Shown: positions 10,547 through 43,694 of the stretch, in pieces
Numbering within the stretch: the stretch's first letter is position 1
How the letters are laid out: each line of letters begins with the position of its first letter
DNA from: Pelobium sp.
GTDB taxonomy: Bacteria > Bacteroidota > Bacteroidia > Sphingobacteriales > Sphingobacteriaceae
NCBI GenBank assembly: GCA_965218985.1
Contig: CBDCMP010000004.1
Span: 330,869 to 394,868, forward strand
DNA: 64,000 bases
Direction of reading: 5' to 3'
Program-made: the position numbers and the translations under genes
Notes under the pieces: model-generated
The model's database searches: none
Seen by the model: only the letters and a program-made list of their open reading frames with translations
What the model was told of the DNA's origin: nothing

Positions 10547-10573
10547 TAATTTTTTAACATGGTTTAGGGAAAT

Positions 10574-12968: not shown

Positions 12969-12985
12969 CTCCTTATCGGCAGGCG

Positions 12986-15119: not shown

Positions 15120-15569
15120 TTACTTCTTCGAGAATTTCATGTCTGAATAGTCTGAAAAGGAAACGCCGTTTGCGTCACCTTCAACGCCACTTAAGATCAA
15201 ATTCTGGCCCTTTTTCTCAAATTGATAATACCCAATGATTGTTGGGAAATCAAAAGAGGTTGGGTTTGAGATTCTGATCATGTTCTTGCTCTTCTCTTTT
15301 CTAGTAAAATACTGGAAGTTTACCCTGGCTTTGCCGTCAATCTCATACCAACCAGTGCAATTACCCCCCAATCCATCCTTCATGGTGCAGTTGTCAAAGA
15401 AAATTGTACCAGATGATATATTCACAGTGGTAGATTTACCATCATCGTAGTTAGTGATCATGTCTATATTGTATTCATCGGCAACTTTCGAAATCAGTTT
15501 TTGGTCTTTGTTGCAGGAGGAAAAAACCATGAAAAATAGGGTAATGAATAAAAGCAATTTCGTCTTCAT
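15120..15569 (-). CDS. Hypothetical lipoprotein (lipocalin-like beta pattern)
   Basis: Signal peptide with FSSC lipobox, 149 aa. Confidence 0.7.
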   Translation of the reverse strand: MKTKLLLFITLFFMVFSSCNKDQKLISKVADEYNIDMITNYDDGKSTTVNISSGTIFFDNCTMKDGLGGNCTGWYEIDGKARVNFQYFTRKEKSKNMIRISNPTSFDFPTIIGYYQFEKKGQNLILSGVEGDANGVSFSDYSDMKFSKK

Positions 15570-15622
15570 AATGTTAGAATTAAGGGTAATCGATTTTATA
15601 ATCGATTACCCTGTTAGTAAAA

Positions 15623-17197: not shown

Positions 17198-17367
17198 GTT
17201 TAAAATTGATTGATAAATATTGCTGCTAAAAAAAAATGCATGAGGAAGTAGACCATCCGGAAGATTTCATGTATCAATGATTCGGCAAATGTCGGCTTTT
17301 CATAATCCCATCTTTTCGATATCGGGGGCTATTTCATTTTAAAGACAAAGCGAGCTTTTTGCATATT

Positions 17368-19032: not shown

Positions 19033-19097
19033 TATAACACTATTTAGAAATGGAACTGATAAAGTTCCGTTTTATAATTAAAAGAGCGTACAGCAAC

Positions 19098-25600: not shown

Positions 25601-27564
25601 GTTTGACATAACGCTGCTGTGAGGAAGAACGGTATTCGATACCGTAAAGCACCGGCTTGCTTTTTTCAAAGATATTAAAGGTATCTACTGAAGTAGAGTC
25701 CTCAAAAAAATCATCCTCTTCTTGCTCAAATGAATATTTCGCTCTTCCTATATTTACCATTCTAACATCAGAAACCATAGAGTACCCTTGTTCGTCAAAA
25801 GCGGTAAAGGTCTGTTCATCGGTTCGGGGCAGGCTGTAGGACAGAGCCCTGATCTGTGGCTTTTCTGGCAGCCTAGCATTGGATTTTCCAGTAGGTAGGC
25901 TTAAATAACTATATGCTTTTGTTCCCGTGGATCCTATTTCTTTTTTGTTGCTGTAACGTATTCTATAAACAAATTTTTGATTTTCTTCGGCAGGGGGCAA
26001 TTTATCAATATATCCCAATCCCAGCATGCGAGCCAAGTGGTAATCCAATGCCTGAAGATTCAACATATCCAGATAGCTGACCAAAAACACCTGATTTTCT
26101 TGCTCAGGGTCTGGATTTTCTTGTTCCAATTCCCCCGTGGCTCTTGGGTCGGTCTCGCTATAGGCCAGGTAATCCTCTACCAAATCTTTGATAGAGGGGT
26201 CTGTTGGGTAACTTACATTCCACTTGTCCTTGTAATTTTGGCTTCTTATCCTTGTCCCTTCATTAAAATGAGGCCAGAGGTTATCTATCGGTTTATCAGC
26301 ATGCTCTAGTCTTTGATATACCTCTTGGTCATCCAGTGAAAGTGCAAACCCATTTTCAATCTGCTGCCAAGAATTGCTATCCCTACTTGCCAAAAAATCA
26401 TCATAGGTTTCAAATGCAAAACTTTTAAGAAAGCCTCCAGAAACAAAGTATCTTACTTTGTTGATATTTTCCCCCAAGTAACTCTTAGTTATTAAAGGCG
26501 TATTCGAAATGATGCTGTCACGTATTCCAATAGTTTCTCCGTCAAGGGTACTGATGGCTTCAAGTTTTATGGAAGACTCGGCAGAATTATTATCTTTATT
26601 TAAGACGATTTCAAAAGCAAAAATATTCTTCTGGCCAAAATCCAGTTCCAAAAGCCCCTCATAAGCCATTAAAAAGCTTTCTGGGTCGGTAGCCGCATCT
26701 ATTGTTGTTGCTATCTCATCATAATGATCTTGATCCTTGAAATGTAAGCTGACACGATTGGTATACCAAAGTATCATTTACAACTGCAGTCACCACAAAA
26801 GTCCAGTTCTTTATCCGATAATTCACTACAGGTCGGGCTGTAGAAAAATCCAAGACTGATCTAATTGGTTGAAGATAAGGTGTTCTTTCTAAAATGATAA
26901 AATCATCATTCTTATTGTACCCAACTTCGCTTTGAGCATAATTTCCTTTAGGAAAATGATATTCCCCCAATTCACCAGCAAGATTCCATCTCAAATGCAC
27001 TCCTGCCACACTTCCATCAGCACCATCAGAACCTGCCGCTTGCAGATACAATTCACTGGAATTATTATAATAGCTGCTCACCACATCATTTCCACATGGG
27101 TTCAGTCCTATCTCTTTCAAATATCCCTGTAATTGATCGAAAGAATCTAACACAGGAAAAAGAGCTTCGTCGATTGCTGCGGCAAGTTCAGCACTGATCT
27201 CATCCTTTCTTCTTGAAAGCTCTGTAAATACATTAAGTATCGTACGAAACCTTGAGCTATACCCTGTGTTCCGGCTATCTAACAGCCCTGTAAAAAAGTC
27301 ATATTCAGAGAAATCAATATCATCAAAATCACCTTTCAGGTAATTTTCTATAACATCGTCGTTCCCATCTATTACCCCCAATACCATTAGGGTACGGCTA
27401 TATAATCTTTGTAGCTCATCATTTTCGAGGATACTGAGCAGCGATTTCACTTCTTCTTCAGAGGCAAAACCTCCTGCTTCCTCCATTGCCTGTATAGCAA
27501 ACAAGCAGGTGGCCATCTGACTGTAATCAGCATAAAATGCATAGGAATTGAACGATTCAGGCAT
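22686..27564 (-). CDS. Large hypothetical protein (~1625 aa) with C-terminal FN3-like modules; annotated as two overlapping ORFs because of a frameshift at ~26760
   Basis: 26719-27564 and 22686-26777 overlap; reading ...VNDTLVY/TNRVSLHFKD is continuous; no signal peptide. Confidence 0.7.
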
Positions 27565-27596: not shown

Positions 27597-30500
27597 TTAA
27601 CTGGTTAAATATTGTTGCAGGTCTATAGCTGGACTGTCATAGACCTCTGCAAGTTGCTCATAGCCGACACCATCAAAAACTTTGTATATCAGCTTCAATT
27701 GCATCAATCCAAAGGGGATATCCATCGCTTCATTGGTAATAAACACGGCAGAACGTTCTCCTGAATGAATGTACCTGAATGATGAAGCTGGAAGTACATT
27801 TCCTTCTGTTGAAATACTTAGTTGTACTGTATTTTCCAGAAGTTCTTCTGTGTACTTCGGCTCATTGAAAGGCTCTGGATTGCGAAGCAAAATTCCGATC
27901 AACCTTTCCTCTCCAGAGCTATCCGGAGCAGAATTTATGATCAGCAGCGCTTCTGTGCCCGCAGGAAAATCTGGTGTTTTAAACCCAATTCCACCGTAAA
28001 TCAACCTGTCATAAGGTTCTGCGTAACGCAGCACATCGGCAGGATCATCTGCTGTGTTCTCATTGACCAATAATTTCAACCTGTTGTTTATTTCAGCAGT
28101 TGAAAAATTAGTTTGATACTTGCTGATGGCATATTTTTCTTCGCCTGGAGTTCCATCCAAAACAAAACTGCCTGCCTGCTCAATAAAATCCGAATATCGG
28201 GAACTTATAAACCCAAATTTATGAATTTCATTGGTGCTGAGTGCTTCGCCTTCCCGTCCATAAACACCACTGAAGACAGCGGTATATAATTTATTAGCCT
28301 CCAAATCTGGAAACTCATACGTTCCTTGACGAATCTTACGGGTAAAAGACAAATTCACGCTGCCACATTGCTGAGCGGCACTATTGAGCTTATACAGTGC
28401 TTTGATATCTTCGGGAAGAATGTCTGCAGTTTCAGGTGTTACGGGCAATTCTATGGGTTCATTCCAAATAAGTTCTTGTTCTATCGGGTTGCCAGAAGGG
28501 TTCAATAATTGCAATTTCAAACTGCTGGTGATTGCCGGCTGTCCATTGTAGGCTGCCCAGTTCTCAAACATGGCGTTGATATAAGGCTGGGTAAAAAACA
28601 GCCTTACTTGCGGATTGTGGAAGAACACAGGTTTACTTCTATCAAAACGGCCTTGGGCATCGGGAAAAGAACGTTCGTAATCAATATAGTGTTTCAATGA
28701 GGCTAGCTTGAATTCATCCTGCCTGTCTCCCTCTTTTAGAAGCTGATATTTTTCGCTTTGTTGATGGAAATGACCAACAGGCCCCGCTGTCTTGAAACCA
28801 AAAACATGTTTTCTCTCTGGGGTTGCTTGTCCATCTACAACATCCCTGGTCTTTACTTTGATCGCATAGGTGGTGTCCGGTCTCCAAACAGGCTGAATTG
28901 TTTTATTGATGGCGTTATCCAACACCTGCAGCTCTTCTATCATCCGTTCTTCCTTCATGTCATTTTCTACCACCCTGCTGTAGGTTTCTTGTTCCACGTA
29001 GCTTAACTGATCTAGCCATGTTTGCGCAGCCGAGGGGTTGTAGGCGGCCAATTCTGCTGGTATAGTTACGATAGCTTTTAATATCCTATCAATGTAAATG
29101 TCCAACATTCCGCTTTGCCTGTTCACATTGACAAATATCGCTTTATACTGCTTTTTACTTAATGTAGAGGTGTTGCAATCTATTGTAAACTTATCACTTA
29201 CTTGATGCCCCCAGCTTCCACTCTCTTTATAACAGGTGAACCAAATGCTGTACTCAGGGATACTTGCTGCATCAGGATAAGTGGTATTTGGATTAGTGAC
29301 GGCAGTTCTACACAAATGTAAAGCGTAACCCGTCCTGAATCCGCTTTCGGGATCCTCCTTGACCTTGGAGAATAAGGTGCTCAGCCCAATTTCGAAAGGG
29401 CTAAAAATTGCCGTCAGCCCAAAAGCAAAACTGCTGTTCTCTATTTTTAAGTTAGGATAGTAAACCGCTTTCAGGCCATCCGTCCGCACATTGAAGGTAT
29501 ATACCCGACGCTGCTGTATTTTGTTAACATCATCTATTTCATAGTAGCTCTCTGTAAAATCTGGACTACCATTGATCAATGCATAGCGGTTACTATATAA
29601 TTCTCTGTTGTTATACATCGACCATTTTGCAATCGCTCCCGCAAGTTGGCCATTGACGGATTCGACCACTTCGCTTTCTGTAAAACTCCTATTGTAAAAT
29701 GTGACAAACGCAAGTGCTTTCTTTGTCTCCAATTCTCTGTAATATCCGGGAAGGTCACCCATGTCATACTGGTCAGGTAGCCTGTAGTGGTTTCCCATCA
29801 TTAAGTCACCCTCATAATCAGGAGAAGCGGCCGTCAGGAATTCTATCAGGATTTTATTGATCGGAACCGTGTTGTCTTTCAGCTCCAACAGGGGTGAGGG
29901 TTCATTCTTGGGCGCCTGCATAATAGCTACCGGTTCATCAATGGCAACCACGATACTGCGGAAGAGCTTTCTTGATATGACATACCTCGTCTTGATGAAA
30001 CTCACCTTCAAGGTATGCTGGTTTTCCCTAAACTGGAGATTGACATAAGCCAGTTCCTGAGGCAAGTTAATTTCCAAACTCCCTGTATAACCGGTCAGCG
30101 ACAGGCTGTTGCCCGAATACCCTTCTCTGTAATCCACTTTAGCGGCAATATTTCCAACTAAAGTGAATTTAAAGTTATTGATGTAAAAAGGAAGTTCCAC
30201 CGGATACCCGGTATCTGCAGGGATAGACTTCCAGTTGATGAGCTGCTCTTCCCATACGCTTTCAAAGCAAAAGACATCCTTTTTGCCAAAATTCTTATCA
30301 TCAAGGGCATTCTCGTCCAGGGGTTGGCCGGCTCCATAACTAAACATGTGCTGCGACAATAGCCTTATTTTATTGAACTTTCCTGGTTCCATAAATTGCC
30401 AGTATCCTGGCTTTAAGCTATCCAGATTTATAGCACCTGTACCTGTATTGGCCTCTACAATGGCACTTACCGCTTTATAAACATCATAAGGCACCCAGCT

Positions 30501-33500
30501 ACTGTTATTCCAGGAGTAGATTTCGAGCCCCGTGATCTCATATTCGTGTTTTATTTGTTTGCTCACGCCTTTTTGCGGAGGGATCAATTCGCTGTAGCCA
30601 ATCGGCAACTGATTGGCCGCTCCACCTAAAGGTATGGCTCCAGGCTTTACAGGCTTCAACAATTCTATATCGATGAAACTGTCGAGCGGGATGGTCACTT
30701 TCCTGGCATCCTCCGGATTCTCAAAGTCATATTTCCAGGTTCCCTGACCTGGCGCAGGAATGACATCAATATCATTGCCCAGTACATAATTGATGCTAAA
30801 ACTTTCATTGGAAAGGATATTTACCGCTCCTGCCGGCATGGTGCCTCCTGATTCCTCCGGAAGTTGCAGCAAAGGTTGTGCGCTCCTTATTATCGTGGTG
30901 TCGTTATTGAAATGCCAGCTCATCTCCAGTTTGAAACGGATACGCTTAAAGATGACTTTGACGGATACCTCCAGGCTTCCCACAATATTGAACGGATGAG
31001 GAGCCTCTACCGCAAGGCTAATGGCAACGGAAAGACCAATCTTAAACTTCCATACCTTGAGGTAGGCATAACCTCCCACCTGGATATAGCCCCCAATCTG
31101 TACCGGTTTGAAAGTCACGAAACCGCCAAGATTAAGGAAGGCCCCCAAGCCTACCGAAACAGGACCGAAGTCCTTTTTAAAATCGAATTTTATACCGGCT
31201 CCTGCTTTTATCCCCCGGGAAGAAAGCATCAGGAAGGCATGACCTTTGAACAGGGTCAATATATCTGCCCTTACCTGCGCACTCTCGGGCTGGTCTTTTC
31301 CGATGTTCAGGTACCAACCGGAAGCATTGTTAAAGAAGAATGCCATGTCCAGCGCTCCCTGGAGCTTGAATATCCGCCCATCATCAGGAAGGTTGAAGTT
31401 GACACTCAAATTTCCCCTTACCGCATGGTCTCCAAAAACAATCAAAGCCCTAAAAGGGGGGTCCACATCATCGTTCAAAGCAATACGCTTACGAAGCATG
31501 CCAGCCTGGCCTTCTATGATGAAGGTGTTGGGCAAACCCAGAAGGATGAAAAGTTTGCTGGAAAAGGTCCATCCCGAATCGAAAATCGTTCCCAAAGACA
31601 TTCCTGCACCCACGGAAAAGCCAGGTTCATTGGCAAACTTACTGATGCCAGCCCCTTTGGGAGGGGCATTGTAATAATCCAACCAGCTTGCTGTCTCGGG
31701 CAAGGGTGGCGTAACTGCTGATTTTGAGGGCAGGTAATGTTGCGCCAGCAGCCCACGCAGGCTATATATGCCCAGTCCGGTTCCCCCCAGTGGTGCCGCT
31801 GATGGCAAATCCATGCCCACATCCACCACAAAAGCGGGGACTCCCGGGTTCAAGCGCATGCCCGCACTCCCGGCTATTTTCAGTTTGGGCAGCGAAAAGG
31901 CCACGGAGCCTGTATATTCCGTATTCCCCACCGAACCTACCTGTGTGGGGTTGCTCACGCTCAAGAAACCGTTGAGCAGGAAAGCGGCTTTTTCCCTGTC
32001 GTTGCCGGGTATTGCCAGGTCTATCTCCAGGCGGTCAATACTGATGAAATGGTCCAGTTCAAGATCGTCAACAGTGAAATAATACTTTAGACCATTACCG
32101 GTGGTGTTTATCCCTGCCCTTCCGGTGTTCACCATCCCATCGAAAGAGAAATAACGGTAGCTGCGTTCCACGCCCCCCAGTTTTCTTTGGTAGGCCCCGA
32201 AAGCGATATTGCCGACTTCCATGTTCACCGGCCCGATATGCAGCCTGAAGGTTTTCGGCACCTTGAATGAGCCTCCTTCGAAATCGATCCTCCCATCATC
32301 CCAGATGAGCAGTTTGGTGAGCTCTATGTTTTTGGGCAAAATATCCCCCAGAAAGGGGATGTCTGCGATGAAGCTCAGCTGTCCGGAGATGGACACATAG
32401 TAGTTTCCGTCAACACTGCCTGCTGCCGCACTGCGCACTTTCAACTCAAAGACCTCCGGGAAAGTGATGGTGTAAGGCTCCGCCTGCGGCAGTGCCCTGA
32501 TGGTGAAATCGCCATTGTCCCTTATCGCTGCTTCTATGGCGATCTCTGCCAGGCCGCCACCTGATGCCGTGAATTTCGGGATGGTCAACTTGCCTGCTAT
32601 ATAAGAGCCGGTGATGCTGTTCTGCCTGAAACTTAAGGAAAAGGCATTGAGTTCTACCGCAAAGTTGCCGAACTTGCGGTAGAGTTTGCCATTGGCCTCC
32701 AGACCGATGGTGCCGGAAACGCCACCTGTGCCGATCAACAGATCATCCGCAAAAATTGCAGCACTGGTGTTTGCAGGATTGGGCTGCCCGAATTTTCCAA
32801 ATTCTATGGTTGCATGCTGTACATACAAACCCACAAAATCAACCGGATAACCTGCAACATCTGCCTCGGGAATATTTGAAGTGGTGCTTGCATCTAATTT
32901 AGCATAAGTGAAACTGATAATTAAACCTGTATTTGCTATCTGGGCTTTTGGAGTATCAGGATGAAAACTGAGGGCTAGTGTTTCCTCGAAACCGAAACCC
33001 GCCTTAGAATCGAAATAAAACTCTCCTGCATCAAATATCAACCTGGTTTTAATATCTCCAGGAATAATTTCGTTATTTAGATTTAAGGGCAATAAAGCAC
33101 TTCTTGGTATTTCTAAACCTGCAGATAACTGGGCCGTTGCTGTTATTTGGGGGATAAGTAGATCTTTTATAAAACCTATGGCATCATTGCCTAAGAAACT
33201 CGAAAATACCCCACTCACCTGAGATAAAGTATTATCTAAGCTGGTATCGTCAAATATATAAAGATCAAAAAGAGCAGTAAAAATATCAACACCCTCAGTT
33301 GTAAAAGCATCTCTTATATCAGAATATGCAATTTCTGGATTGCTATTTAAAGGTTGCGTTATAGCTAAACTAGAGTACTTAGCCTTAGCATCAGTAACAA
33401 ATTGTTCGAGCTGTCCCAATTCCAATAAGAAAAGACTCCCTGTTTCAGTATCAGGAAGGTAATCGTATGTCGGAGTAAAACTTTGAGACGGAATAGGCCC

Positions 33501-33998
33501 CGGTACAGGAGAGTCTTCTAAATCCTGCTCCTCTTCTGAATAATCAGTTTCTGTCAAGCAAAAGTCTAATATACCAATAAACAACTCTTTATCTGAATGA
33601 TTTATAACTTGTAAAAGAAGATTAAAAAACGAATTGGGAGAAAATCCAAAAGCTGAGAGTTTAAAAGAAGAAATATAATTTAAGATATCCCATTTCCAAT
33701 ATAACGAGATTGGAATGACACTATAATCTGAATTAGGCTCTTCCGTTTCAAGATCGGGGTTTAGGATTAATGCTAATCCGGTACCGGGTATCTCTATTCT
33801 TAAAATTTCAGAAAAGCTTACTAAATCTAATTCGTAAAATGTGCCAGATTTATTTGAAGAACTATTATTTACCTGAAGATTTCTAAAATATATTCTATTT
33901 AACATCGTCTCGAAAGCATCGGAGATGAAGTTTAGTTTCTCAGGTATTTCGCCTAAGGTAATAACGGTGGACAATGGGGAATAAAATACATCTGCCAT
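27597..33998 (-). CDS. Giant beta-rich hypothetical protein, 2133 aa (DUF6603-like core, probable LamG-like insert)
   Basis: Uninterrupted ORF; long amphipathic beta-strand region (aa ~280-1030) including PLGGTGLGIYSLRGLLAQHY; no signal peptide. Confidence 0.75.
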   Translation of the reverse strand: MADVFYSPLSTVITLGEIPEKLNFISDAFETMLNRIYFRNLQVNNSSSNKSGTFYELDLVSFSEILRIEIPGTGLALILNPDLETEEPNSDYSVIPISLYWKWDILNYISSFKLSAFGFSPNSFFNLLLQVINHSDKELFIGILDFCLTETDYSEEEQDLEDSPVPGPIPSQSFTPTYDYLPDTETGSLFLLELGQLEQFVTDAKAKYSSLAITQPLNSNPEIAYSDIRDAFTTEGVDIFTALFDLYIFDDTSLDNTLSQVSGVFSSFLGNDAIGFIKDLLIPQITATAQLSAGLEIPRSALLPLNLNNEIIPGDIKTRLIFDAGEFYFDSKAGFGFEETLALSFHPDTPKAQIANTGLIISFTYAKLDASTTSNIPEADVAGYPVDFVGLYVQHATIEFGKFGQPNPANTSAAIFADDLLIGTGGVSGTIGLEANGKLYRKFGNFAVELNAFSLSFRQNSITGSYIAGKLTIPKFTASGGGLAEIAIEAAIRDNGDFTIRALPQAEPYTITFPEVFELKVRSAAAGSVDGNYYVSISGQLSFIADIPFLGDILPKNIELTKLLIWDDGRIDFEGGSFKVPKTFRLHIGPVNMEVGNIAFGAYQRKLGGVERSYRYFSFDGMVNTGRAGINTTGNGLKYYFTVDDLELDHFISIDRLEIDLAIPGNDREKAAFLLNGFLSVSNPTQVGSVGNTEYTGSVAFSLPKLKIAGSAGMRLNPGVPAFVVDVGMDLPSAAPLGGTGLGIYSLRGLLAQHYLPSKSAVTPPLPETASWLDYYNAPPKGAGISKFANEPGFSVGAGMSLGTIFDSGWTFSSKLFILLGLPNTFIIEGQAGMLRKRIALNDDVDPPFRALIVFGDHAVRGNLSVNFNLPDDGRIFKLQGALDMAFFFNNASGWYLNIGKDQPESAQVRADILTLFKGHAFLMLSSRGIKAGAGIKFDFKKDFGPVSVGLGAFLNLGGFVTFKPVQIGGYIQVGGYAYLKVWKFKIGLSVAISLAVEAPHPFNIVGSLEVSVKVIFKRIRFKLEMSWHFNNDTTIIRSAQPLLQLPEESGGTMPAGAVNILSNESFSINYVLGNDIDVIPAPGQGTWKYDFENPEDARKVTIPLDSFIDIELLKPVKPGAIPLGGAANQLPIGYSELIPPQKGVSKQIKHEYEITGLEIYSWNNSSWVPYDVYKAVSAIVEANTGTGAINLDSLKPGYWQFMEPGKFNKIRLLSQHMFSYGAGQPLDENALDDKNFGKKDVFCFESVWEEQLINWKSIPADTGYPVELPFYINNFKFTLVGNIAAKVDYREGYSGNSLSLTGYTGSLEINLPQELAYVNLQFRENQHTLKVSFIKTRYVISRKLFRSIVVAIDEPVAIMQAPKNEPSPLLELKDNTVPINKILIEFLTAASPDYEGDLMMGNHYRLPDQYDMGDLPGYYRELETKKALAFVTFYNRSFTESEVVESVNGQLAGAIAKWSMYNNRELYSNRYALINGSPDFTESYYEIDDVNKIQQRRVYTFNVRTDGLKAVYYPNLKIENSSFAFGLTAIFSPFEIGLSTLFSKVKEDPESGFRTGYALHLCRTAVTNPNTTYPDAASIPEYSIWFTCYKESGSWGHQVSDKFTIDCNTSTLSKKQYKAIFVNVNRQSGMLDIYIDRILKAIVTIPAELAAYNPSAAQTWLDQLSYVEQETYSRVVENDMKEERMIEELQVLDNAINKTIQPVWRPDTTYAIKVKTRDVVDGQATPERKHVFGFKTAGPVGHFHQQSEKYQLLKEGDRQDEFKLASLKHYIDYERSFPDAQGRFDRSKPVFFHNPQVRLFFTQPYINAMFENWAAYNGQPAITSSLKLQLLNPSGNPIEQELIWNEPIELPVTPETADILPEDIKALYKLNSAAQQCGSVNLSFTRKIRQGTYEFPDLEANKLYTAVFSGVYGREGEALSTNEIHKFGFISSRYSDFIEQAGSFVLDGTPGEEKYAISKYQTNFSTAEINNRLKLLVNENTADDPADVLRYAEPYDRLIYGGIGFKTPDFPAGTEALLIINSAPDSSGEERLIGILLRNPEPFNEPKYTEELLENTVQLSISTEGNVLPASSFRYIHSGERSAVFITNEAMDIPFGLMQLKLIYKVFDGVGYEQLAEVYDSPAIDLQQYLTS

Positions 33999-34004: not shown

Positions 34005-34769
34005 TTAATTAATAGGTGGTTCTAACTCTTTTATTTTTATTTCTCCGTTATCTAATATCTTTATACTGTAGTTTTGATAAAAGTTGGTTAATCCCCCATC
34101 ATCTCCCTCAAATTGAAAAATTTTTATTTCTTTATTTTTATCTATAAAAAAATATCTTTCTTTTTCATTATAAGGTTCGCTAATAATATTATAGACATTG
34201 ATCACATTTGCCACATTAGTGACAGAATTATAGAGAATTAAATTCCCCGATGATTTGCATAGTCGTTTTTCTTCATAAAAGTTTGGAGGATATTTGACGC
34301 CGTCGTCATTAATTTGAGAATAATAACACTCGTATGGACCTATGCCCTCGAATTTATATCTTATACTATCTATCGAATTTGTTATTGAATCTACAAATGG
34401 TAATTTATCTTGTAATTTAATATAATTTATCTTTTTTATATCGAGACCTTTTATCGTCCTAATAGATGTTAAACGTTCGTAATAGCGATAGATTTTGAGA
34501 AATAAATTATTTACGTTTTTCCATTTCGGAGAGTCCCATCCATAAGATGTATCCAGATTTTCTAAATAAACGCTTCCAAAAGGTAATTTACTCGTCAGGG
34601 GATAAAGATCAGAACTATCTCCTACCACACTATCTTCCGCATTCTTTAGAAATGCTGTTTCCAATTGGATACTGTCACTCTTACGATTAGACCTTTCTTT
34701 TTCTTCTTTTTTATTATCTTGACATGACAATAAAACAACTAATAGACATAAGTAAATTAGAATTTTCAT
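34005..34769 (-). CDS. Lipoprotein, putative immunity protein (allele 2)
   Basis: MKILIYLCLLVVLLSC lipobox; TAATG overlap with the upstream peptidase-domain gene; paralog of 39998-40741. Confidence 0.7.
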   Translation of the reverse strand: MKILIYLCLLVVLLSCQDNKKEEKERSNRKSDSIQLETAFLKNAEDSVVGDSSDLYPLTSKLPFGSVYLENLDTSYGWDSPKWKNVNNLFLKIYRYYERLTSIRTIKGLDIKKINYIKLQDKLPFVDSITNSIDSIRYKFEGIGPYECYYSQINDDGVKYPPNFYEEKRLCKSSGNLILYNSVTNVANVINVYNIISEPYNEKERYFFIDKNKEIKIFQFEGDDGGLTNFYQNYSIKILDNGEIKIKELEPPIN

Positions 34770-37537
34770 TATTTATCTTTATTTAAGTTTCCGAAATGAA
34801 TATGGTTTTCATGTTTTATCAACGGAGTTACATTTTTAAGATTTGCATACTTAGATTTTGTACCTACATAGATCGTATGGAATTTATAAAATCTCATAGC
34901 ATCTATAATAGTCTGATTATTTAATATAGCCTGCTTATATTGTGCGTCATCTACATCAGGGATTTCTTTATTTGCCATAAAATTTTGATAGCGCATATCG
35001 AAAGATGCGCCACTCGCATGTGCTACGCTAGGATAACATGTCCCATTAGAATAAGCTCCACCATTAAAATAATGGGTAAATTGGATAGTTTTTATTAATC
35101 CACCTAAAAAGGCGGCCATCACCTTGGGTGCTAAATACAGCCTTTCAGTGTGGATCAATATTGTTAGGGTTTGATTATTTATTATAAATGTCAGTTTTCT
35201 TAATTTTTCTCCATTAATTATAACTACTTGGAAAAGGTTAGGGTCGAATCTTACCATAAATATTTTTTCTCCTGAATAGGCGTATTTTGTGATTTCACCT
35301 CCATTATTATTTGTTACCCAAATATCCTTATTATTATAATAATAAAAATCATAGATAGTATTTTCACCCGCTAAACCATCTTTTTTAGTCCCATTTGGAG
35401 GTACTGAAGTATATAAAGGAGCTCCTCTATAAGGTCTTTTTATTCCGTTTGAAACGCCCTCTATCTGAATTACCTCACACTCGCAAATCGGATACTCATT
35501 ACCATTTTCATGATGGTATATATATTTTATTAGACTTCCCAGAGTTCCCGCTGTTATATCATTAACCTGTAACACTTCTCGCTTATTATGATATATATGA
35601 AACTCAACCTGATTTGTGGCATCAGGAATTTTATTAGCTGAAAAGTCTTTGGAATTGTAGAAGAACCTATCCATACTGTAAACAATAATAGGCGAACCTG
35701 ATTTGGTAGGCGCTGCATAAGCCAAATCACCATTGCTATCCAAACCCTGTACTTTTAACTGATATTGATATATTGGTAAAGAAACCTGAGTTGAATCGGT
35801 GTAAAGTGCAGGAGCGTCTCCATACGGCTCTAAAAATAAATAGGTGTGATGTCCACTGTCTAAGGAATAAGCGGCTGTTTTAACTGCTTCCATTTCAGCC
35901 ACTGTTAATCCTAAAAATAAAGCAGATTCTCTTTCTTTTAAAGTATTGCTCTGGCAATTCGTAATACTTATTATCTTGATGTCCTCCTCATGTGGTCCAC
36001 TGCTATCCTTATTCTCAAACAGCCTGGTTTCAATTGTTAAATACCTGCCTATCTTATCTGAAAAAGCTTTGCTGTTCAAATCCAGCTTGCTCACCTTGAC
36101 AGGCTTGGGGTACTTTAATCCTGTGGTTCTGTACTGAACCTTTAAATTTGAATAGAATAATACTGCTGCTTCATCCCAAAATGCACCATTGTTAGCTATG
36201 TATTTGAACCCTCCTTCATGATTATTGTTATTCAATTCTTCACCGATGTATACCGGATTTGAATTCTCTGCCTCTCTCAATTTTGAAGTGGGGTTGTTGA
36301 AATCATCAGGGATCAGATTTATGGAACAAAAAGCATGGTCATAATACCTGTTGTTTCTCACAAATGGGCTTGGGGAAGTTTGGTCTATGGCAGAATGAAA
36401 ATAGTGCATTTTGACATAATACGGCTTCGATGGAATGGTAAGGTCGATATATTTTGTCCATCCGGGATTAGTATCATCAATCAAATCATCAAAAAAAGGA
36501 GTGTTTTGATTTTTTGATTTTAAACTTTTTGATTCAATATAAATTAACGGTTTGATATTTCCATCTGTACGTAGTTTAAAGCTAAGATTGGTAATGTTTT
36601 CTAAGTAAATGATTGGCCAGCCTTCAGTATCGTAATTTTGGGATGTAGTGTTATGATTTAAAGCGATATATTGGTAATCCTGATAATAATTATAGGAATA
36701 GCCCTGGTCACTTCTGATGTCCAGATATAATCTATCTTTGGTAAAAAATTTAGAAAGAACATCTGTATATAGTTCAGCTTCCTTTTTTTTGATGGTTGTT
36801 TTGGTCTGACCAGAATAAGTGGAGGTGTTCACTCCTGTTTTTTGGTATGATCCAAAAAAAGCTGTAGGATCAACGAAAGCCAAGATGGCTTCCTTTTTGG
36901 CTCTCAATGTTGATCCCGTTAAGTTGCTAACATCTATGACTGTTTGGTTATTTTTAACAAATTCTATGTCGACAGTAATTTTTTCAGGTTCTAAAATGAT
37001 TTCAAAACCGGTTTCTCCAGTAACAGATGAAACAAATTCACCAAACCATTCCCCTTCCTTTATTTGAATCGGAGCTATGTTTATGTCTGAACTCCTGAAT
37101 ATCTCATTGATGCTCTTATCGGTGGACATGGAGTTGGTGTAGCCTAAAATCCCTGCTTCATATAATTCAACATCTAATCTCGCATTATATATTCTTTGGA
37201 TGAATTCATTGTTTGTTGAACTCTTTTGCACTATAGCCGTACCATCGGCTTTTAATAGACTTACTTTTAAGATTCCCCTGTATATATAATATTTCACTTT
37301 GGAATTGACTTTCTTGGAGCTTGAGATAGGTTCTAATATCACATTGACCAAAGCAGGATTTTCATTAGATTCTTGGACAACCATCATACAGTCTTCACAT
37401 GCAAAGGCCGCGGCATCTTCTTCTAACTGAAACCTTGAAGTCACATTATACTTGGTGGTTTCTTCACCATCCATTGGCCCATATTTATCGGATGGGCTCT
37501 GTACGGGCAGTTTGGTATGGTCAATGAAGAAATGCAT
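34769..37537 (-). CDS. Putative polymorphic toxin, 922 aa, conserved N-terminus plus C-terminal LAS (M15/M74-like) Zn peptidase (allele 2)
   Basis: HASGASFD (H-x6-D) and HENHIH (HxH) near the C-terminus; no signal peptide. Confidence 0.7.
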   Translation of the reverse strand: MHFFIDHTKLPVQSPSDKYGPMDGEETTKYNVTSRFQLEEDAAAFACEDCMMVVQESNENPALVNVILEPISSSKKVNSKVKYYIYRGILKVSLLKADGTAIVQKSSTNNEFIQRIYNARLDVELYEAGILGYTNSMSTDKSINEIFRSSDINIAPIQIKEGEWFGEFVSSVTGETGFEIILEPEKITVDIEFVKNNQTVIDVSNLTGSTLRAKKEAILAFVDPTAFFGSYQKTGVNTSTYSGQTKTTIKKKEAELYTDVLSKFFTKDRLYLDIRSDQGYSYNYYQDYQYIALNHNTTSQNYDTEGWPIIYLENITNLSFKLRTDGNIKPLIYIESKSLKSKNQNTPFFDDLIDDTNPGWTKYIDLTIPSKPYYVKMHYFHSAIDQTSPSPFVRNNRYYDHAFCSINLIPDDFNNPTSKLREAENSNPVYIGEELNNNNHEGGFKYIANNGAFWDEAAVLFYSNLKVQYRTTGLKYPKPVKVSKLDLNSKAFSDKIGRYLTIETRLFENKDSSGPHEEDIKIISITNCQSNTLKERESALFLGLTVAEMEAVKTAAYSLDSGHHTYLFLEPYGDAPALYTDSTQVSLPIYQYQLKVQGLDSNGDLAYAAPTKSGSPIIVYSMDRFFYNSKDFSANKIPDATNQVEFHIYHNKREVLQVNDITAGTLGSLIKYIYHHENGNEYPICECEVIQIEGVSNGIKRPYRGAPLYTSVPPNGTKKDGLAGENTIYDFYYYNNKDIWVTNNNGGEITKYAYSGEKIFMVRFDPNLFQVVIINGEKLRKLTFIINNQTLTILIHTERLYLAPKVMAAFLGGLIKTIQFTHYFNGGAYSNGTCYPSVAHASGASFDMRYQNFMANKEIPDVDDAQYKQAILNNQTIIDAMRFYKFHTIYVGTKSKYANLKNVTPLIKHENHIHFGNLNKDK

Positions 37538-37598
37538 CGGACAAAAAATTTAGACCTTGAAATATGGGATCAAATTAGCTCATTGATGAGGCATTGTC

Positions 37599-37618
37599 AA
37601 TACCACTAAAGTGGTATT
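37599..37618. promoter_or_regulatory. Palindromic operator-like site upstream of toxin allele 2
   Basis: AATACCACT-AA-AGTGGTATT overlapping a minus-strand TTGACA. Confidence 0.5.
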
Positions 37619-37653
37619 TTTAAGTGACCCGGACAGGGGGCTTATCTGTTTCT

Positions 37654-39975
37654 TTAAGGTGGTGTGGCCGGCCTGCGGAATTGGACAGGATCTGCATCAA
37701 CGACCGCAGCGGCATCCTTTATGTCCCTTTTCGGGGCGGGAAGCGTGCCGAAACGCCCAGACCGTTTTTCAATGGTCAGGCTGCCTCTGCCAGCCCCATC
37801 CCCACATCCACCACAAAGGCAGGGACCCCCGGGTTCAACCGCATGCCCGCACTTCCGGCTATTTTCAGCTTGGGCAGCGAAAAGTCTACCGAACCGGTAT
37901 ATTCGGACGAGGCCACCGAGCCTCCCGTTGTGGGATTGGCGACACTCAGGAAACCGCTCAGCAGGAAGGCTGCCTTTTCTCTGTCGCCGCCCGGTATCGG
38001 CCAGGTCTATCTCCAGCCGGTCGATGCTGATGAAATGGTCCAGTGCAAGATCATCAACAGTGAAATAATATTTGATCCCATTACCAGTGGTGTTTATCCC
38101 GGCCCTTCCGGTGTTCACCATGCCATCGAAAGAGAAATAACGGTAGCTGCGTTCCACGCCCCCCAGTTTTCTTTGGTAGGCCCCGAAAGCGATATTGCCG
38201 ACTTCCATGTTGACCGGCCCGATGTGCAGCCTGAAGGTTTTGGCCACCTTGAAGGACCCCCCTTCGAAACCGATCCTGCCGTCATCCCAGATGAGCAGTT
38301 TGGTGAGCTCTATGTTTTTGGGCAGGATGTCCCCCAGGAAAGGGATGTCTGCGATGAAGCTCAGCTGTCCGGAGATGGACACGTAATACCTGCCGTCTAC
38401 GCTGCCTGCCTGCGCACTGCGTATTTTTAATTCGAAGACTTCTGGAAAAGTAATGGTATAGGGTTCGGATCGGGGTAAAGCTTTGATGGTGAAATCGCCA
38501 TTGTCCCTTATCGCTGCTTCTATGGCCATCTCTGCCAGGCCGCCACCTGATGCCGTGAATTTGGGGATGGTGATTTTTCCTGTGATAAAGGAGTTGATGA
38601 TGGCATTCTGCCGGAAGGTGATGGAAAATTCATCCAGCTCGACAGCGAAATTGCCAAATTTTCGGTAAAGTTTGCCATTAGCTTCCAAACCGATAGTGCC
38701 AGAAACACCTCCTGTGCCAATCAATAAATCATCTGCAAAAATTGCGGCACTGGTGTTCACGGGATTGGGCTGCCCGAATTTTCCAAATTCTATGGTTGCA
38801 TGTTGCACATACAAACCCACAAAATCAACAGGGTAACCCGCTGCGTCTGCCTCGGGGATGTTTGAGGTGGTGCTTGCGTCCAGTTTCGCATAGGTGAAGC
38901 CGATGATGAGACCTGTATTTGCAATCTGGGCTTTGGGAGTGTCTGGATGGAAGCTGATGGCCAAGGTTTCCTGAAAACCGAAACCTGCCCTGGAATCGAA
39001 ATAAAACTCTCCTGCATCAAAGATCAGCTTTGTTTTAACATCTCCAGGGATGATTTCATTATTTGAATTTAGAGGGATTAAGGCACTTCTTGGTATTTCT
39101 AAACCTGCGGAAAGCTGGGCGGTAGCTGAGATTTGGGGGATGAGTAAATCTTTTATAAAACCTATGGCATCATTACCGAAGAATCGTGAAAAGATATCAT
39201 TGACACTTTGTATGGCTATTTCTACACCATCTTCTAAATACATTTCAAAAATCGCTGTAAAAATGTTAATACCAGCACCTGCAAAAGCTGAAACAATATC
39301 TAAATATGCAATTTGTGGTTCGCTGTTTAGAGGTTGGGTGATAGCTAAAGTAGGATACTTTACTTTCGCATCGGTAACAAATTGCTCTAATTGACCACCA
39401 TCTAATTCAAATAGAGAACCTGTAAAAGTATCTGGAATATAATCATAGGTGGCCGTGAACTCCTGAACAGGAACAGGCCCTGGATCTGGTGAATCTGCTA
39501 AATCTTCTTCTTCCTCGGTATATTCTATAGGGTTTAAACAAAAATCTAAGATATGGCCAAATAAATCTTGACCAGAATGGTTAGTGATTTGTAGAAATAA
39601 ATCAAAGAAGGCACTTGGTTTGAAGGCAAAAGCTGAGCTTTTAAAAACAGAAATGTAATTTAAGATCTCCCATTTCCATGATAGAGAAATGGGAATTACA
39701 CTGAAATTTGAACTTGCTCCCCCTGCCTCAAGATCTGGATTTAAAATGAGCACTAAACCTGTGCCCGGAATTTCTAATTTTAATATTTCAGAAAAACTTA
39801 TCAGTTCTAACTCGTAGAATGCGCCAGAATTTGTCAATGAATGATTTACCTGTAAACTTCTAAAATAGATTCTGTCTAAAAGTGTGCTTAATCCATTGTT
39901 AATAAAACTTAGGTCGGGCGGTAATTGATCTAAGTTGAAAATTGATGATAAAGGAGAATAAAATATTTCTGCCAT
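37654..39975 (-). pseudogene. Truncated second copy of the giant protein (first ~730 codons, frameshift at ~37999)
   Basis: Near-identical to 27597-33998 from AIGFIKDLLIPQI to IDRLEIDLA, then an extra C and degeneration. Confidence 0.85.
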
Positions 39976-39997
39976 GATAATTTACTTTTACATGTAA

Positions 39998-40741
39998 TTA
40001 AGGTTTCAACTCTTTTATTTTAATCTCACCACTTTCTGATACCGTTATACTGTATTTTTGATAAAAATTTTCTACTCCACCCTCACCCCCTTCAAAAACA
40101 AATACTTTTATTACTTTATCAATTCCGATAAAAAAAAATCTCTCTTCATCATCATAAGGCTCACTAATAATACTGTGAATGTTAATTATTTTAGCAGTCT
40201 TAGAAACGGCATTATATAGAATTAAACTCCCTGAAGTTTCAAGACGTCTTTTATCATAATCAAAATTTGAGGGATAAGTCGTAGCTAAATTTTCAGTTAT
40301 TTGAGCATAATAACATTCATAAGGACCTATATTCTCAAATTTATATCTTATATAATTACTTTCGTTTGTTAAAGAATCTATAAAAGGTTTACTGTATTTT
40401 AATTTGATTGAGTCTATTTCTAATATTTCTGGTTTAGGTATGATTTTTAAATTATTTATTGATTCATAATAGCGATATATTTTTAAATTTAAATCATTTA
40501 CATTTTTCCATTTAGGCGAGTCCCATCCATATGACGTGTCAAGATTCTCTAAATAAATACTCCCAAATGGGAGTTTTCCGTTCAATTGATAAATCCCAAG
40601 ACTATCTTTAACTTGATTTGGAATTGAATTAGTTATTGCATTTTTTTTTGCTTTAACTAAATTCTTTTTTTCATCCGTTTTAATATTACTATTACAAGAA
40701 AGAATGGGAATTAACATCCATAAATAATTTAATTTTTTCAT
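39998..40741 (-). CDS. Lipoprotein, putative immunity protein (allele 1)
   Basis: MKKLNYLWMLIPILSC lipobox; shares LPFGS(I/V)YLENLDTSYGWDSPKWKNVN with allele 2. Confidence 0.7.
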   Translation of the reverse strand: MKKLNYLWMLIPILSCNSNIKTDEKKNLVKAKKNAITNSIPNQVKDSLGIYQLNGKLPFGSIYLENLDTSYGWDSPKWKNVNDLNLKIYRYYESINNLKIIPKPEILEIDSIKLKYSKPFIDSLTNESNYIRYKFENIGPYECYYAQITENLATTYPSNFDYDKRRLETSGSLILYNAVSKTAKIINIHSIISEPYDDEERFFFIGIDKVIKVFVFEGGEGGVENFYQKYSITVSESGEIKIKELKP

Positions 40742-40743
40742 GA

Positions 40744-43539
40744 TTAATACTCGGCCAAATTTCCAAAATGTATATGATTATTATGATCATCATAAGGAGT
40801 TACATTTTTAAGCGCTTGATATTTGGATTTCTTTCCAACATAAATAGTTTGAAATCTATAAAACCTCATAGCATCAATTACGGACTGATTGTGTAATATT
40901 GCTTGTTTGTGTTGTGGTGTTTCCTCACCATCATTTAAATCTGGGATTTCATTACCTGCTCCAAAATCTTGATAACGCATATCATATGAAGCACCACTTG
41001 CATGAGCTACACTAATGTAACAGGTTCCATTTGAATATGCTCCACCATTAAAATAATGTGTAAATTGAATGGTTCTTATTAATGCCCCGAGAAACGCGGC
41101 CATGACTTTTGGGTTAAGATACATTCTTTCACTTTTGGTTAATATTATTAAATTTTGGTTATTAATTGGGAACACAAGTTTTCTAAATTTAACTCCATCT
41201 ATATAAACTTCTTGAAAAAGACTAGGGATGAATCTAACCATGAACACCCTCTTATTTAAACTTTCGTATTTAATAATTCCATGAGTGCCATTATCAGTAA
41301 CCCAAATATCTTTATTCGCATAGTAATAAAAATCATAACTTGTATTTTCACCCATTAATCCGTCCTTTTTAGTGCCGTTTGGAGGCACTGAAGTAAATTT
41401 AATCCTATTTTTCCTATCTAAATACTTGTTCCCATTTGAAACACCATCAATTTCTATTATATCACATTCACAAATTGTATACTCATTTCCATTTTCGTGA
41501 TGATAAATATATTTAATTCTATTACCTGATTGTATATAAGAAGGGGTCATTTTACCTTTTTGAAATACTTCACCTTTATTGTGATAAATATGAAACTCAA
41601 CCTGATTAGTGGCATCAGGAGTTTTATTAGCTGAAAACTCTTTGGAATTGTAGAAGAACCTGTCTATACTGTAAACAAGAATGGGCGAACCTGATTTGGT
41701 AGGTACAGCATAAGCCAAATCACCATTGCTATCCAGACCCTGTACTTTTAACTGATACTGATAAACTGCAAGGCCCACATTAGTCACCCCATCGAAATAG
41801 ACCGGTGGGCCATCCTGACCCAGATAAGGCTCTAAAAATAAATAGGTGTGATGTCCACTGTCTAAGGAATAAGCGGCTGTTTTAACTGCTTCCATTTCAG
41901 CCACTGTTAAACCTAAAAATAAAGCAGATTCCCTTTCTTTTAAATTATTGGTCTCGCAGTTCGTAATGCTTATTATCTTGATGTCCTCCTCATGTGGGCC
42001 ACTGGTATCCTTATTCTCAAACAACCTGGTTTCAATTGTCAAATACCTGCCTATCTTATCTGAAAAAGCTTTGCTGTTCAAATCCAGCTTGCTCACCTTG
42101 ACAGGATTGGGGTACTTTAATCCCGTGGTTCTGTACTGTACTTTTAAATTGGAATAAAAAAGCACTTTACCCTCATCCCAAAACGCACCATTGTTAGCTA
42201 TGTATTTGAACCCCCCCTCATGGCCATTGTTATTCAATTCTTCACCGATGTAGACCGGATTTGAATTCTCCACTTCTCTTAATTTTGAAGACGGACTACT
42301 AAAATCATCAGGGATCAGATCTATCGAACAAAAAGCATGGTCATAATACCTGTTGTTTCTTACAAATGGGCTTGGGGAAGTTTGATCTATGGCAGAATGA
42401 AAATAGTGCATTTTGACATAATAGGGCTTCGATGGAATGGTGAGGTCGATGTCTTTTGTCCATCCGGGATCAGCATCATCAATCAAATCATCAAAAAAAG
42501 GGGTATTTTGATTTTTTGATTTTAAACTTTTTGATTCAATATAGATCAAGGGTTTGATGTTGCCATCTGTGCGCAGTTTAAAGCTCAGATTGGCAATGTT
42601 TTCCAGGTAAATGACCGGCCAGCCTTCAGTTTCGTAATTTTGGAATGTAGCGTTATGATTTAAAACGATATACTGGTAATCCTGATAATAATTATAGGAA
42701 TAGCCTTTGTCACTTCTGATGTCCAGATACAACCTATCTTTGGTGAAAAATTTAGACAAAACATCCGTATATAATTCAGCTTCCTTTTTTTTGATGGTTG
42801 TTTTGGTCTGACCAGAATAAGTGGAGGTGTTCACCCCTGTTTTTTGGTATGATCCAAAAAAAGCTACCGGGTCAACGAAAGCCAAGATGGCTTCCCTTCT
42901 GGCTCTCAACGTTGATCCCGTTAAATTACTAACATCTATGACTGTTTGGTTATTTTTAACAAATTCTATGTCGACAGTGATTTTTTCAGGTTCTAAAATG
43001 ATTTCAAAACCGGTTTCTCCAGTAACAGATGAAACAAATTCACCAAACCATTCCCCTTCCTTTATTTGAATCGGGGCTATATTTATATTTGAACTTCTGA
43101 ATATTTCATTGATGCTCTTATCGGTGGACATGGAGTTGCTGTAGCCTAAAATCCCTGCATTATATAAATCAACATCTAATCTTGCATTATATATTCTTTG
43201 GATGAATTCATTGTTTGTTGAACTTTTTGGCACTAAAGCTGTTCCGTCAGCTGTTAGTAGACTTGCTTTTAAAATCCCCCTGTATATATAGTATTTCACT
43301 TTTGAAGTCACTTTACCGGAGCTCGAAACAGGCTCCAGAATGACATTGACCAGTAAAGGGTTTTCATTCGATTCCTGCACTACCATCATACAGTCTTCAC
43401 ACGCAAAGGCTGATGCATCCTCTTCTAACTGGAATTTAGAAGTCACCTTATATTTGGTGCTTGCTCCACCATCCACCGGCCCATATTTATCTAATGAGCT
43501 TTGTATTGGCAGTTTGGTATGGTCAATGAAGAAATGCAT
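40744..43539 (-). CDS. Putative polymorphic toxin, ~931 aa, LAS Zn-peptidase C-terminus (allele 1)
   Basis: ATG start at 43539 by alignment with allele 2 (MHFFIDHTKLP); HASGASYD and HNNHIH motifs. Confidence 0.7.
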   Translation of the reverse strand: MHFFIDHTKLPIQSSLDKYGPVDGGASTKYKVTSKFQLEEDASAFACEDCMMVVQESNENPLLVNVILEPVSSSGKVTSKVKYYIYRGILKASLLTADGTALVPKSSTNNEFIQRIYNARLDVDLYNAGILGYSNSMSTDKSINEIFRSSNINIAPIQIKEGEWFGEFVSSVTGETGFEIILEPEKITVDIEFVKNNQTVIDVSNLTGSTLRARREAILAFVDPVAFFGSYQKTGVNTSTYSGQTKTTIKKKEAELYTDVLSKFFTKDRLYLDIRSDKGYSYNYYQDYQYIVLNHNATFQNYETEGWPVIYLENIANLSFKLRTDGNIKPLIYIESKSLKSKNQNTPFFDDLIDDADPGWTKDIDLTIPSKPYYVKMHYFHSAIDQTSPSPFVRNNRYYDHAFCSIDLIPDDFSSPSSKLREVENSNPVYIGEELNNNGHEGGFKYIANNGAFWDEGKVLFYSNLKVQYRTTGLKYPNPVKVSKLDLNSKAFSDKIGRYLTIETRLFENKDTSGPHEEDIKIISITNCETNNLKERESALFLGLTVAEMEAVKTAAYSLDSGHHTYLFLEPYLGQDGPPVYFDGVTNVGLAVYQYQLKVQGLDSNGDLAYAVPTKSGSPILVYSIDRFFYNSKEFSANKTPDATNQVEFHIYHNKGEVFQKGKMTPSYIQSGNRIKYIYHHENGNEYTICECDIIEIDGVSNGNKYLDRKNRIKFTSVPPNGTKKDGLMGENTSYDFYYYANKDIWVTDNGTHGIIKYESLNKRVFMVRFIPSLFQEVYIDGVKFRKLVFPINNQNLIILTKSERMYLNPKVMAAFLGALIRTIQFTHYFNGGAYSNGTCYISVAHASGASYDMRYQDFGAGNEIPDLNDGEETPQHKQAILHNQSVIDAMRFYRFQTIYVGKKSKYQALKNVTPYDDHNNHIHFGNLAEY

Positions 43540-43600
43540 CAGACAAAAAAATTTAACCTTGAAATATGGGGTCAAATTAGCTCATTGACCGGGCATTGTC

Positions 43601-43620
43601 AATACCACTAAAGTGGTATT
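43601..43620. promoter_or_regulatory. Palindromic operator-like site upstream of toxin allele 1
   Basis: Identical AATACCACT-AA-AGTGGTATT. Confidence 0.5.
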
Positions 43621-43694
43621 TTTAATGATCAGGACAGGGGGCCTGTCTGTTTCTTTTGGTGGTGTGGCTGGCCTGCGGAATTGGCACCCCCAAT

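Follow-up and report, generated by a model that had tools for sequence, protein, structure and literature searches.

Two tandem alleles of a predicted polymorphic toxin from Pelobium sp., with a MepA-like peptidase tail and a candidate immunity lipoprotein

The window analyzed here is a 64,000-nucleotide stretch of the genome of Pelobium sp. (Bacteroidota; GenBank assembly GCA_965218985.1, contig CBDCMP010000004.1, positions 330,869 to 394,868 of the forward strand). On its minus strand, two long genes, toxA and toxB, are each followed by a lipoprotein gene, lipoA and lipoB, respectively. We propose, with a probability of about 0.7, that a polymorphic antibacterial toxin with a MepA-like tail is present here as two alleles, toxA and toxB, each with a cognate lipoprotein as immunity protein. 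The toxin chemistry is of a known kind, cell-wall-cleaving effectors with periplasmic immunity being well known, and what is new is the carrier domain and the cassette architecture.

In the mechanism that we envisage, an N-terminal domain of about 640 residues (the MHFF N-domain), which always begins with MHFF, is devoid of export signal and is conserved in a sporadic, mostly Bacteroidota family, would couple the toxin to its delivery route. The exchangeable 283-aa C-terminal module would end, over its last ~125 residues, with a MepA-like zinc metallopeptidase of the LAS type (lysostaphin / D-Ala-D-Ala peptidase / Sonic hedgehog fold), able to cut the peptide cross-links of peptidoglycan in the periplasm of the recipient cell. 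The coupled lipoprotein, placed in the periplasm of the producer, would bind and block the toxin coming from sister cells and act as cognate immunity. The pair likely depends on an uncharacterized operon of giant proteins, which could constitute the delivery machine.

In LAS enzymes, an H-x(3-6)-D motif gives two zinc ligands, and a C-terminal H-x-H motif gives the third ligand together with the catalytic histidine. An earlier reading made from the nucleotide sequence without database searches (hereafter the sequence-only reading) had noticed both motifs in both proteins. We indeed found them in toxB, as VAHASGASFD (H840-x6-D847) and KHENHIHF (H912-I-H914, with H909 before it), as well as in toxA, as VAHASGASYD (H846-x6-D853) and DHNNHIHF (H919, H922 and H924). 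The H909-x2-H912-x-H914 spacing is that of the invariant H206-x2-H209-x-H211 of Escherichia coli MepA. Among 146 diverse relatives of the tail, an arginine, the P-S-x2-H-x-N-G-x3-D-x2-Y segment and the H-x2-H-x-H motif are invariant or nearly so, and the match is therefore not due to chance. The equivalents of H909, H912 and H914 are invariant in the 86 relatives that are not of the MHFF type, and the catalytic motifs are intact in 15 of the 15 MHFF-type copies examined. Using hhalign, the T-x-RRY...H-x6-D segment of the tail was aligned onto R66-R67-Y68...H113...D120 of MepA.

We then considered the structure of the tail. The AlphaFold2 model of residues 640-922 of toxB, built from a 60-sequence alignment, is of high confidence (predicted local distance difference test, pLDDT, of 93.8 and predicted template modelling score, pTM, of 0.92). 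When it was compared with the PDB using Foldseek, the top four matches were chains of E. coli MepA (1tzp and 1u10), with a probability of 1.00 and E-values from 4.7e-4 to 1.7e-3. N-domains of Sonic hedgehog came after MepA, amid noise, with probabilities of 0.28-0.57. MepA was also the best match for the poorer model of the full-length toxin (pLDDT 68). By these matches, the tail would have the central antiparallel sheet and the flanking helices of the LAS fold, with modest template modelling (TM) scores. A fold unrelated to LAS enzymes was thus not what we observed, and the assignment put forward by the sequence-only reading holds at the fold level, specifically for MepA (family M74). On the other hand, the Pfam family Peptidase_M74 (PF03411) gave no match for the tail at E <= 0.1. 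We conclude that the tail is, as far as the model can tell, a remote MepA-like LAS metallopeptidase and not a member of Peptidase_M74, and this LAS/MepA reading appears well supported computationally. The predicted zinc ligands of toxB would be H840, D847 and H914, with H912 and H909 as the putative equivalents of MepA H209 and H206, respectively, and the tail could have a peptidoglycan-peptidase activity. MepA-like DD-peptidase domains are already listed among the predicted effector domains of type VI secretion systems (T6SS) (PMC12135965, PMC7400221).

Exchangeable C-terminal tails with matched downstream genes are a hallmark of interbacterial polymorphic toxins (PMC3482391). We searched 1.84 billion representative proteins (clusters at 50% identity) with a profile of the last 126 residues, and the tail was found in 382 protein clusters. 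It is C-terminal in 150 of the 150 matches listed, at the end of host proteins of 117-1584 aa. The MHFF N-domain is present in 33 of the 146 best tail matches and absent from the other 113, two of which carry a PAAR-like DUF4280 domain; Pfam finds almost nothing else among the rest. The same toxin domain is hence found on other delivery scaffolds. As for the MHFF family itself, a word-indexed search gave 13 proteins and a pattern scan of species genomes 64 loci, most of them from Bacteroidota and the few others from Acidobacteriota, Chloroflexota, Planctomycetota and Proteobacteria. Its distribution is patchy, with members in 3 of the 25 species genomes of the genus. Twelve of the 54 complete loci encode the MepA-like tail and 42 encode other tails, among them an HExxH domain and an alpha/beta-hydrolase-like domain of the GHSRGG type, so that a constant N-terminal region is combined with unrelated, exchangeable C-terminal domains. 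No MIX, FIX, WHIX, PAAR, Rhs or VgrG model of Pfam matched the ~640-aa carrier domain, and no fold was identified for it when the full-length model was searched against the PDB and viral libraries.

The matched downstream gene is that of the lipoprotein. A hidden Markov model (HMM) of the lipoprotein family matched the immediately downstream gene in 9 of the 12 loci with a MepA-like tail but in 0 of the 42 complete loci whose tail is of another type (Fisher p = 4e-8); L036, one of the nine, supplied a training sequence of the HMM. Unrelated small proteins come after the other tails, and the immediately downstream gene co-varies with the toxin domain. In two loci (L018 and L021) the lipoprotein match is a fused double domain, and a lipoprotein gene is again found downstream of a 406-aa scaffold bearing the same tail. 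A distant lipoprotein homologue (L006) was dropped, as it is not next to a LAS tail. Searches of the PDB with the lipoprotein, by sequence and by profile, gave no match.

Both lipoproteins of the window possess a lipoprotein signal peptide, ending with ILSC in lipoA and LLSC in lipoB. Each toxin is translationally coupled to its own lipoprotein, the lipoA start overlapping the toxA stop by 4 nt and the lipoB start overlapping the toxB stop by 1 nt. Among the toxin, lipoprotein and giant genes, export signals are carried by the lipoproteins only, and the antidote would therefore sit where an incoming wall-cutting toxin would act. Since the toxin has no export signal, the cytoplasmic toxin of the producer cannot be where the lipoprotein sits. 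Altogether, the occurrence of the tail on many scaffolds, its association with the lipoprotein and the restriction of export signals to the latter support the proposal, already made by the sequence-only reading, of a toxin with periplasmic immunity. The function of the lipoproteins as immunity proteins appears well supported computationally. Keeping two pairs might widen self-protection, as the sequence-only reading suggested.

How the two pairs diverged was then analyzed. Overall, toxA and toxB are 83% identical. In agreement with what had been noticed beforehand, the N-terminal parts are closer (91% over residues 1-520 and 85% over residues 521-640) than the tails (70% over residues 641-922), and the lipoproteins are more diverged than the toxins, lipoA and lipoB being 53% identical with a common block YLENLDTSYGWDSPKWKNVN. 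This pattern had been attributed to diversifying coevolution, a claim that our analysis does not bear out. The ratio of non-synonymous to synonymous substitutions (dN/dS, Nei-Gojobori), whose calculation along the pair had been suggested as a check, amounts to 0.16 when the two toxins are compared, against 0.21 for the two lipoproteins and 0.14 for the N-terminal module of the giant protein that follows. It lies between 0.05 and 0.35 in every measurable 60-codon window, that is, at purifying values throughout. The dS itself ranges from 0.15 to 0.85 across the toxin N-domain. It is saturated beyond about codon 660 of the toxin, over the whole lipoprotein and up to codon ~300 of the giant module, and is lower again toward the end of the 6-kb unit described below. 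These ratios point to purifying selection on the toxins, the lipoproteins and the giant N-module, with the reservation that, with two sequences and a saturated dS, positive selection on single sites could still escape the test. Because dS is saturated and dN/dS is not raised, the tail, the lipoprotein and the head of the giant make up an anciently diverged or imported block, and the N-domains of the two window toxins have been partly homogenized.

The two pairs belong to a tandem array. BLASTN revealed a 6000-bp tandem unit (43684-37685 versus 37684-31811), from which it follows that the 773-aa open reading frame (ORF) located between the two pairs, giant', which the sequence-only reading had not described, repeats the first ~730 codons of the giant gene. 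A cassette thus consists of an upstream region bearing a palindrome, a toxin, a lipoprotein and a ~700-aa copy of the giant N-module, and the last cassette continues into the full 2133-aa giant and then into further large leaderless proteins (Table 1). The palindrome, ATACCACTTTAGTGGTAT, has four copies in the 4.26-Mb genome, about 60 nt upstream of each arrayed toxin gene: at 37600-37617 and 43602-43619 of the window, and at 154657-154674 and 160958-160975 of another contig of the genome, C7. It is a candidate operator of a regulator, and the region that holds it is probably an operator or promoter region; a scan for sigma-70 promoters is uninformative for Bacteroidota.

Contig C7 carries a paralogous array (C7:152153-182002), in which the junction between the end of the giant-N copy and the upstream region of the next toxin is homologous to that of the window. 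In the giant-N copies, one and the same nucleotide downstream of VVDVGM marks the end of homology to the full giant, and a stop codon comes within a few codons of it; in giant' the homology ends at 37796. As the same array and a homologous junction are found at this second locus, this organization is not a recent accident but an old one that has been maintained. The same arrangement is observed on a metagenome contig close to the C7 locus. The four giant-N copies are 40-66% identical over residues 1-300 and 77-95% over residues 301-660, the hypervariable head of the giant varying together with the toxin tail and the lipoprotein.

When compared with the C7 paralogue and with the full giant, giant' owes its 773-aa frame to one extra base near 37997 (37950-38029). 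The contig of an independent public run does not contain this base, without which the frame of giant' ends at 37776 (~732 aa); giant' is therefore probably intact at ~732 aa and the frameshift probably an assembly error. A +1 frameshift near 26790 (26719-26777), which splits a 1625-aa gene further down the operon, is reproduced exactly in the contigs of that independent run.

Two further features were seen on contig C7. A 60-codon fragment just upstream of the split C7 toxin (C7:154405-154587) is 89-90% identical to residues 152-212 of toxB and is likely the scar of a recombination between the two loci. A third, solitary member of 929 aa, which starts with MNFF (C7:1066077-1068866), adjoins relaxase/mobilisation-like genes and is not followed by a giant gene on the same strand; in its tail it resembles the split C7 toxin.

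Table 1. Features of the window (positions 1 to 64,000) and gene order of the paralogous locus on contig C7
Feature	Position	Strand	Description
toxA upstream region	43540..43684	-	conserved; holds the palindrome at 43602-43619
toxA	43539..40744	-	931 aa from the MHFF start, leaderless; conserved N-domain of ~640 aa
toxA C-terminal module	41613..40747	-	289 aa; MepA-like LAS motifs H846, D853, H919, H922, H924
lipoA	40741..39998	-	247-aa lipoprotein, signal ...ILSC; candidate cognate immunity protein
giant'	39975..37654	-	standalone copy of the giant N-module (~700 aa); listed ORF 773 aa
toxB upstream region	37538..37684	-	conserved; holds the perfect 18-nt palindrome ATACCACTTTAGTGGTAT at 37600-37617
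toxB	37537..34769	-	922 aa, leaderless; N-domain at residues 1-~640
toxB C-terminal module	35620..34772	-	residues 640-922; beta-rich pre-domain and LAS core
toxB LAS core	35149..34772	-	residues ~797-922; predicted zinc/catalytic residues H840, D847, H909, H912, H914
lipoB	34769..34005	-	254-aa lipoprotein, signal ...LLSC; candidate cognate immunity protein
giant	33998..27597	-	2133 aa, leaderless; conserved partner of the toxin gene in other genomes
281-aa and 1363-aa ORFs	22686..27564	-	one 1625-aa gene in the paralogous locus; +1 frameshift near 26790
operon tail	15623..22665	-	fn3 proteins of 456 and 377 aa; 378- and 554-aa proteins; 524-aa membrane protein (DUF3103)
C7 locus, 1			split toxin (527 + 384 aa) with a different tail
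C7 locus, 2			two small exported proteins
C7 locus, 3			688-aa giant-N gene
C7 locus, 4			932-aa MepA-like toxin
C7 locus, 5			three tandem lipoprotein genes (271, 263 and 265 aa; two are 77% identical)
C7 locus, 6			2127-aa giant
C7 locus, 7	C7:172646-177523		1625-aa protein

A longer ORF is possible for toxA, from a TTG start at 43575 upstream of the MHFF start. After the giant, the ORFs of the minus strand follow in the order 281, 1363, 456, 377, 378, 554 and 524 aa, and it is uncertain whether the genes of the operon tail are part of the toxin system. Beyond them, the gene of a TonB-dependent receptor is split into a Plug part of 291 aa and a barrel part of 275 aa (12180-14990) and adjoins an insertion sequence-type integrase-core gene (rve, 262 aa), which is a case of local gene decay near the end of the operon.

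Loci of different phyla keep one gene order, in which the toxin is followed by a small gene and then by a ~2000-aa giant. Signal peptides or transmembrane segments in the window operon are limited to the lipoproteins and to the last membrane protein. Searches with Pfam, NCBIfam, PHROGs and PADLOC on the toxins, the lipoproteins, the giant and the operon partners gave nothing specific, with only fn3 and DUF3103 matches. The window giant shows a match to DUF6603 (PF20248) over residues 917-1025 that is below threshold (12.5-16.6 bits for a Pfam cut-off of 27 bits) and thus does not belong to that family, and its C7 paralogue reaches 22.9 bits, both giants matching the same region (330-434) of the profile. 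At another locus, L014, the MepA-like tail is borne by a different scaffold two genes upstream of a true DUF6603 protein. As no BLASTP similarity was found between the giant and this protein, the link between the giants and DUF6603 remains a lead and homology is not established. The literature gave nothing under "DUF6603".

The L014 operon (3490-22332) deserves a description of its own. It is headed by the tail-bearing protein, whose different N-terminal scaffold of ~965 aa starts with MDIPKIYQ..., and which is followed by proteins of 883, 1149 (the true DUF6603 protein), 1025, 1616 and 609 aa; no lipoprotein gene is adjacent to the tail. The idea that the 883-aa and 1149-aa proteins could be a naturally split giant was dropped, again for want of BLASTP similarity.

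What the giant operon could be is a more speculative question. A tentative hypothesis, which we hold to be possible but rather doubtful, is that an interbacterial toxin-delivery system not described before, found in Bacteroidota and some other phyla, would be built from the MHFF protein together with the 2133-aa giant, the ~1625-aa protein and their neighbors; it would be leaderless and devoid of sheath and ATPase. MHFF would be the loading domain, and the first ~300 residues of the giant an adaptor head specific for the toxin or its immunity protein. With the standalone giant-N modules kept in every cassette, a single apparatus could then serve several toxin alleles, and one common palindromic operator would switch each cassette.

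Several observations weigh against the toxin and immunity proposal. First, the Foldseek TM-scores of the tail are only about 0.33-0.44, with high root-mean-square deviations. The hhalign alignment to MepA is weak (pairwise E-values of 0.03-0.17, low probability) and stops short of the HxH motif, and no significant match of the tail sequence was found in Pfam, NCBIfam or the PDB. Second, the toxin and the giant are not separated by a lipoprotein gene in 3 of the 12 MepA-like loci. A loss of the catalytic residues cannot be the cause, as their motifs are intact, and these three loci are the main comparative evidence against immunity; the L014 tail, without adjacent lipoprotein, goes in the same direction. 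Third, the toxin has no export signal and the 94.6%-complete genome contains no TssC/VipB, no tail sheath (Phage_sheath_1) and no VgrG (Phage_GPD), so that the T6SS that would accompany a T6SS effector was not found in the same genome. Finally, the operon copy of the window may be impaired by the frameshift in its 1625-aa gene.

A first alternative is that the protein has no dedicated machine. It could be a bacteriocin-like toxin released by lysis or in vesicles, the giant genes being merely linked to it or serving for adhesion or a phage-like particle. This would fit with the lack of recognizable secretion, sheath, spike and ATPase genes in the operon and in the genome, with the solitary MNFF-type gene found away from any giant and beside mobilisation genes, and with the frameshift in the 1625-aa partner while the toxin and lipoprotein genes are intact. 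We nevertheless consider it unlikely, since a folded protein of ~100 kDa would not pass the outer membrane unaided to reach peptidoglycan and since the order of toxin, small gene and giant is kept across phyla. In addition, each cassette of both arrays keeps a copy of the giant N-module under purifying selection, which indicates that toxin and giant are functionally tied.

Another possibility is that the LAS domain is a housekeeping wall-remodelling enzyme, which would open the peptidoglycan of the producer itself for the giant-protein apparatus, with the lipoprotein as its regulator or inhibitor. TagX and dedicated lytic transglycosylases open the wall in this way for T6SS, type III and type IV secretion systems. 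The loci devoid of adjacent lipoprotein (three of twelve, and L014) would be unexpected for a self-toxic effector, the toxin gene is always the first of an operon of large, structural-looking proteins, and a neighbor in L014 has a faint PG_binding_1 match. In spite of this, the hypothesis seems to us improbable: a structural need would not swap the tail for lipase-like, HExxH or other domains, nor place the same tail on PAAR-like DUF4280 and many unrelated scaffolds, nor amplify lipoprotein genes in tandem as in the C7 locus. Moreover, within the producer a leaderless toxin and an exported lipoprotein can come into contact only if the toxin arrives from outside. Lastly, an intracellular conflict system (anti-phage abortive infection or addiction) whose peptidase lyses the producer itself, which the patchy accessory distribution and the lack of recognizable export functions in the operon might evoke, is hardly credible, because no operon protein has a PADLOC match, a leaderless peptidase cannot reach its own peptidoglycan, a periplasmic antidote makes no sense for a cytoplasmic toxin, and exchangeable tails with matched downstream genes are typical of interbacterial polymorphic toxins (PMC3482391).

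The polymorphic antibacterial toxin with its cognate lipoprotein therefore remains our preferred explanation, and it has several implications. The MepA-like module is widespread, with its 382 clusters, yet it is unrecognized by sequence searches of Pfam, NCBIfam and the PDB. The array is novel in that its cassettes are complete, each repeating the N-terminal module of the gene after it and preceded by a palindrome that is unique to these sites in the genome. A toxin/immunity pair heading a giant-protein operon in the absence of T6SS or contractile-sheath genes gives this operon a testable function, toxin delivery, and the killing of a strain deleted for the immunity gene should be an easy read-out for giant-protein operons. 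If confirmed, this would add one more secretion or delivery route to the weapons of bacteria.

A comparison can first be made with E. coli MepA (M74), which has in common with the tail the RRY motif, the S-H-x2-G-x3-D motif (H113, D120) and the H206-x2-H209-x-H211 spacing. However, MepA is a Sec-exported, free-standing housekeeping enzyme of 274 aa, a penicillin-insensitive murein DD/LD-endopeptidase, whereas the domain described here is made of the last ~125 residues of a leaderless 922-aa protein, with a beta-rich pre-domain ahead of it, and the tail has no counterpart of the Cys-rich C-terminal region of MepA. T6SS effectors resemble the pairs by their cell-wall-cleaving domain and their adjacent exported immunity protein, and the same tail is found elsewhere on PAAR-like DUF4280, but the host genome lacks TssC, sheath and VgrG and the ~640-aa carrier is new. 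As regards the uncharacterized cassettes of DUF6603 giant proteins, the likeness lies in leaderless giants that come after a toxin gene, and the difference in the scores of our giants (16.6 and 22.9 bits), which stay below the Pfam cut-off of 27 bits.

The Tc (ABC) toxins are similar in sizes and logic only, with a ~950-aa protein whose body is conserved and whose C-terminal toxin is hypervariable, beside proteins of ~2100 and ~1600 aa. They differ by their RHS/YD, SpvB and TcA/TcB Pfam domains, none of which is found here, and the present system includes an immunity gene of the antibacterial type. A Tc-like reading was rejected, the only Tc holotoxin match in the fold search with the full-length model having a probability of 0.03. 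Polymorphic toxins (PMC3482391) and the TANFOR-domain toxins of Bacteroidetes (PMC7073777) resemble our system in that their N-terminal trafficking region is conserved and their C-terminal toxin domains recombine, and in having immunity genes downstream and cassettes arranged in arrays. On the other hand, the MHFF N-domain corresponds neither to TANFOR, Rhs or CdiA nor to any other of the listed trafficking domains. Instead of orphan C-terminal tips, the spare cassettes here consist of complete genes with their own upstream palindrome, and each of them also repeats the N-terminal module of the gene that comes next.

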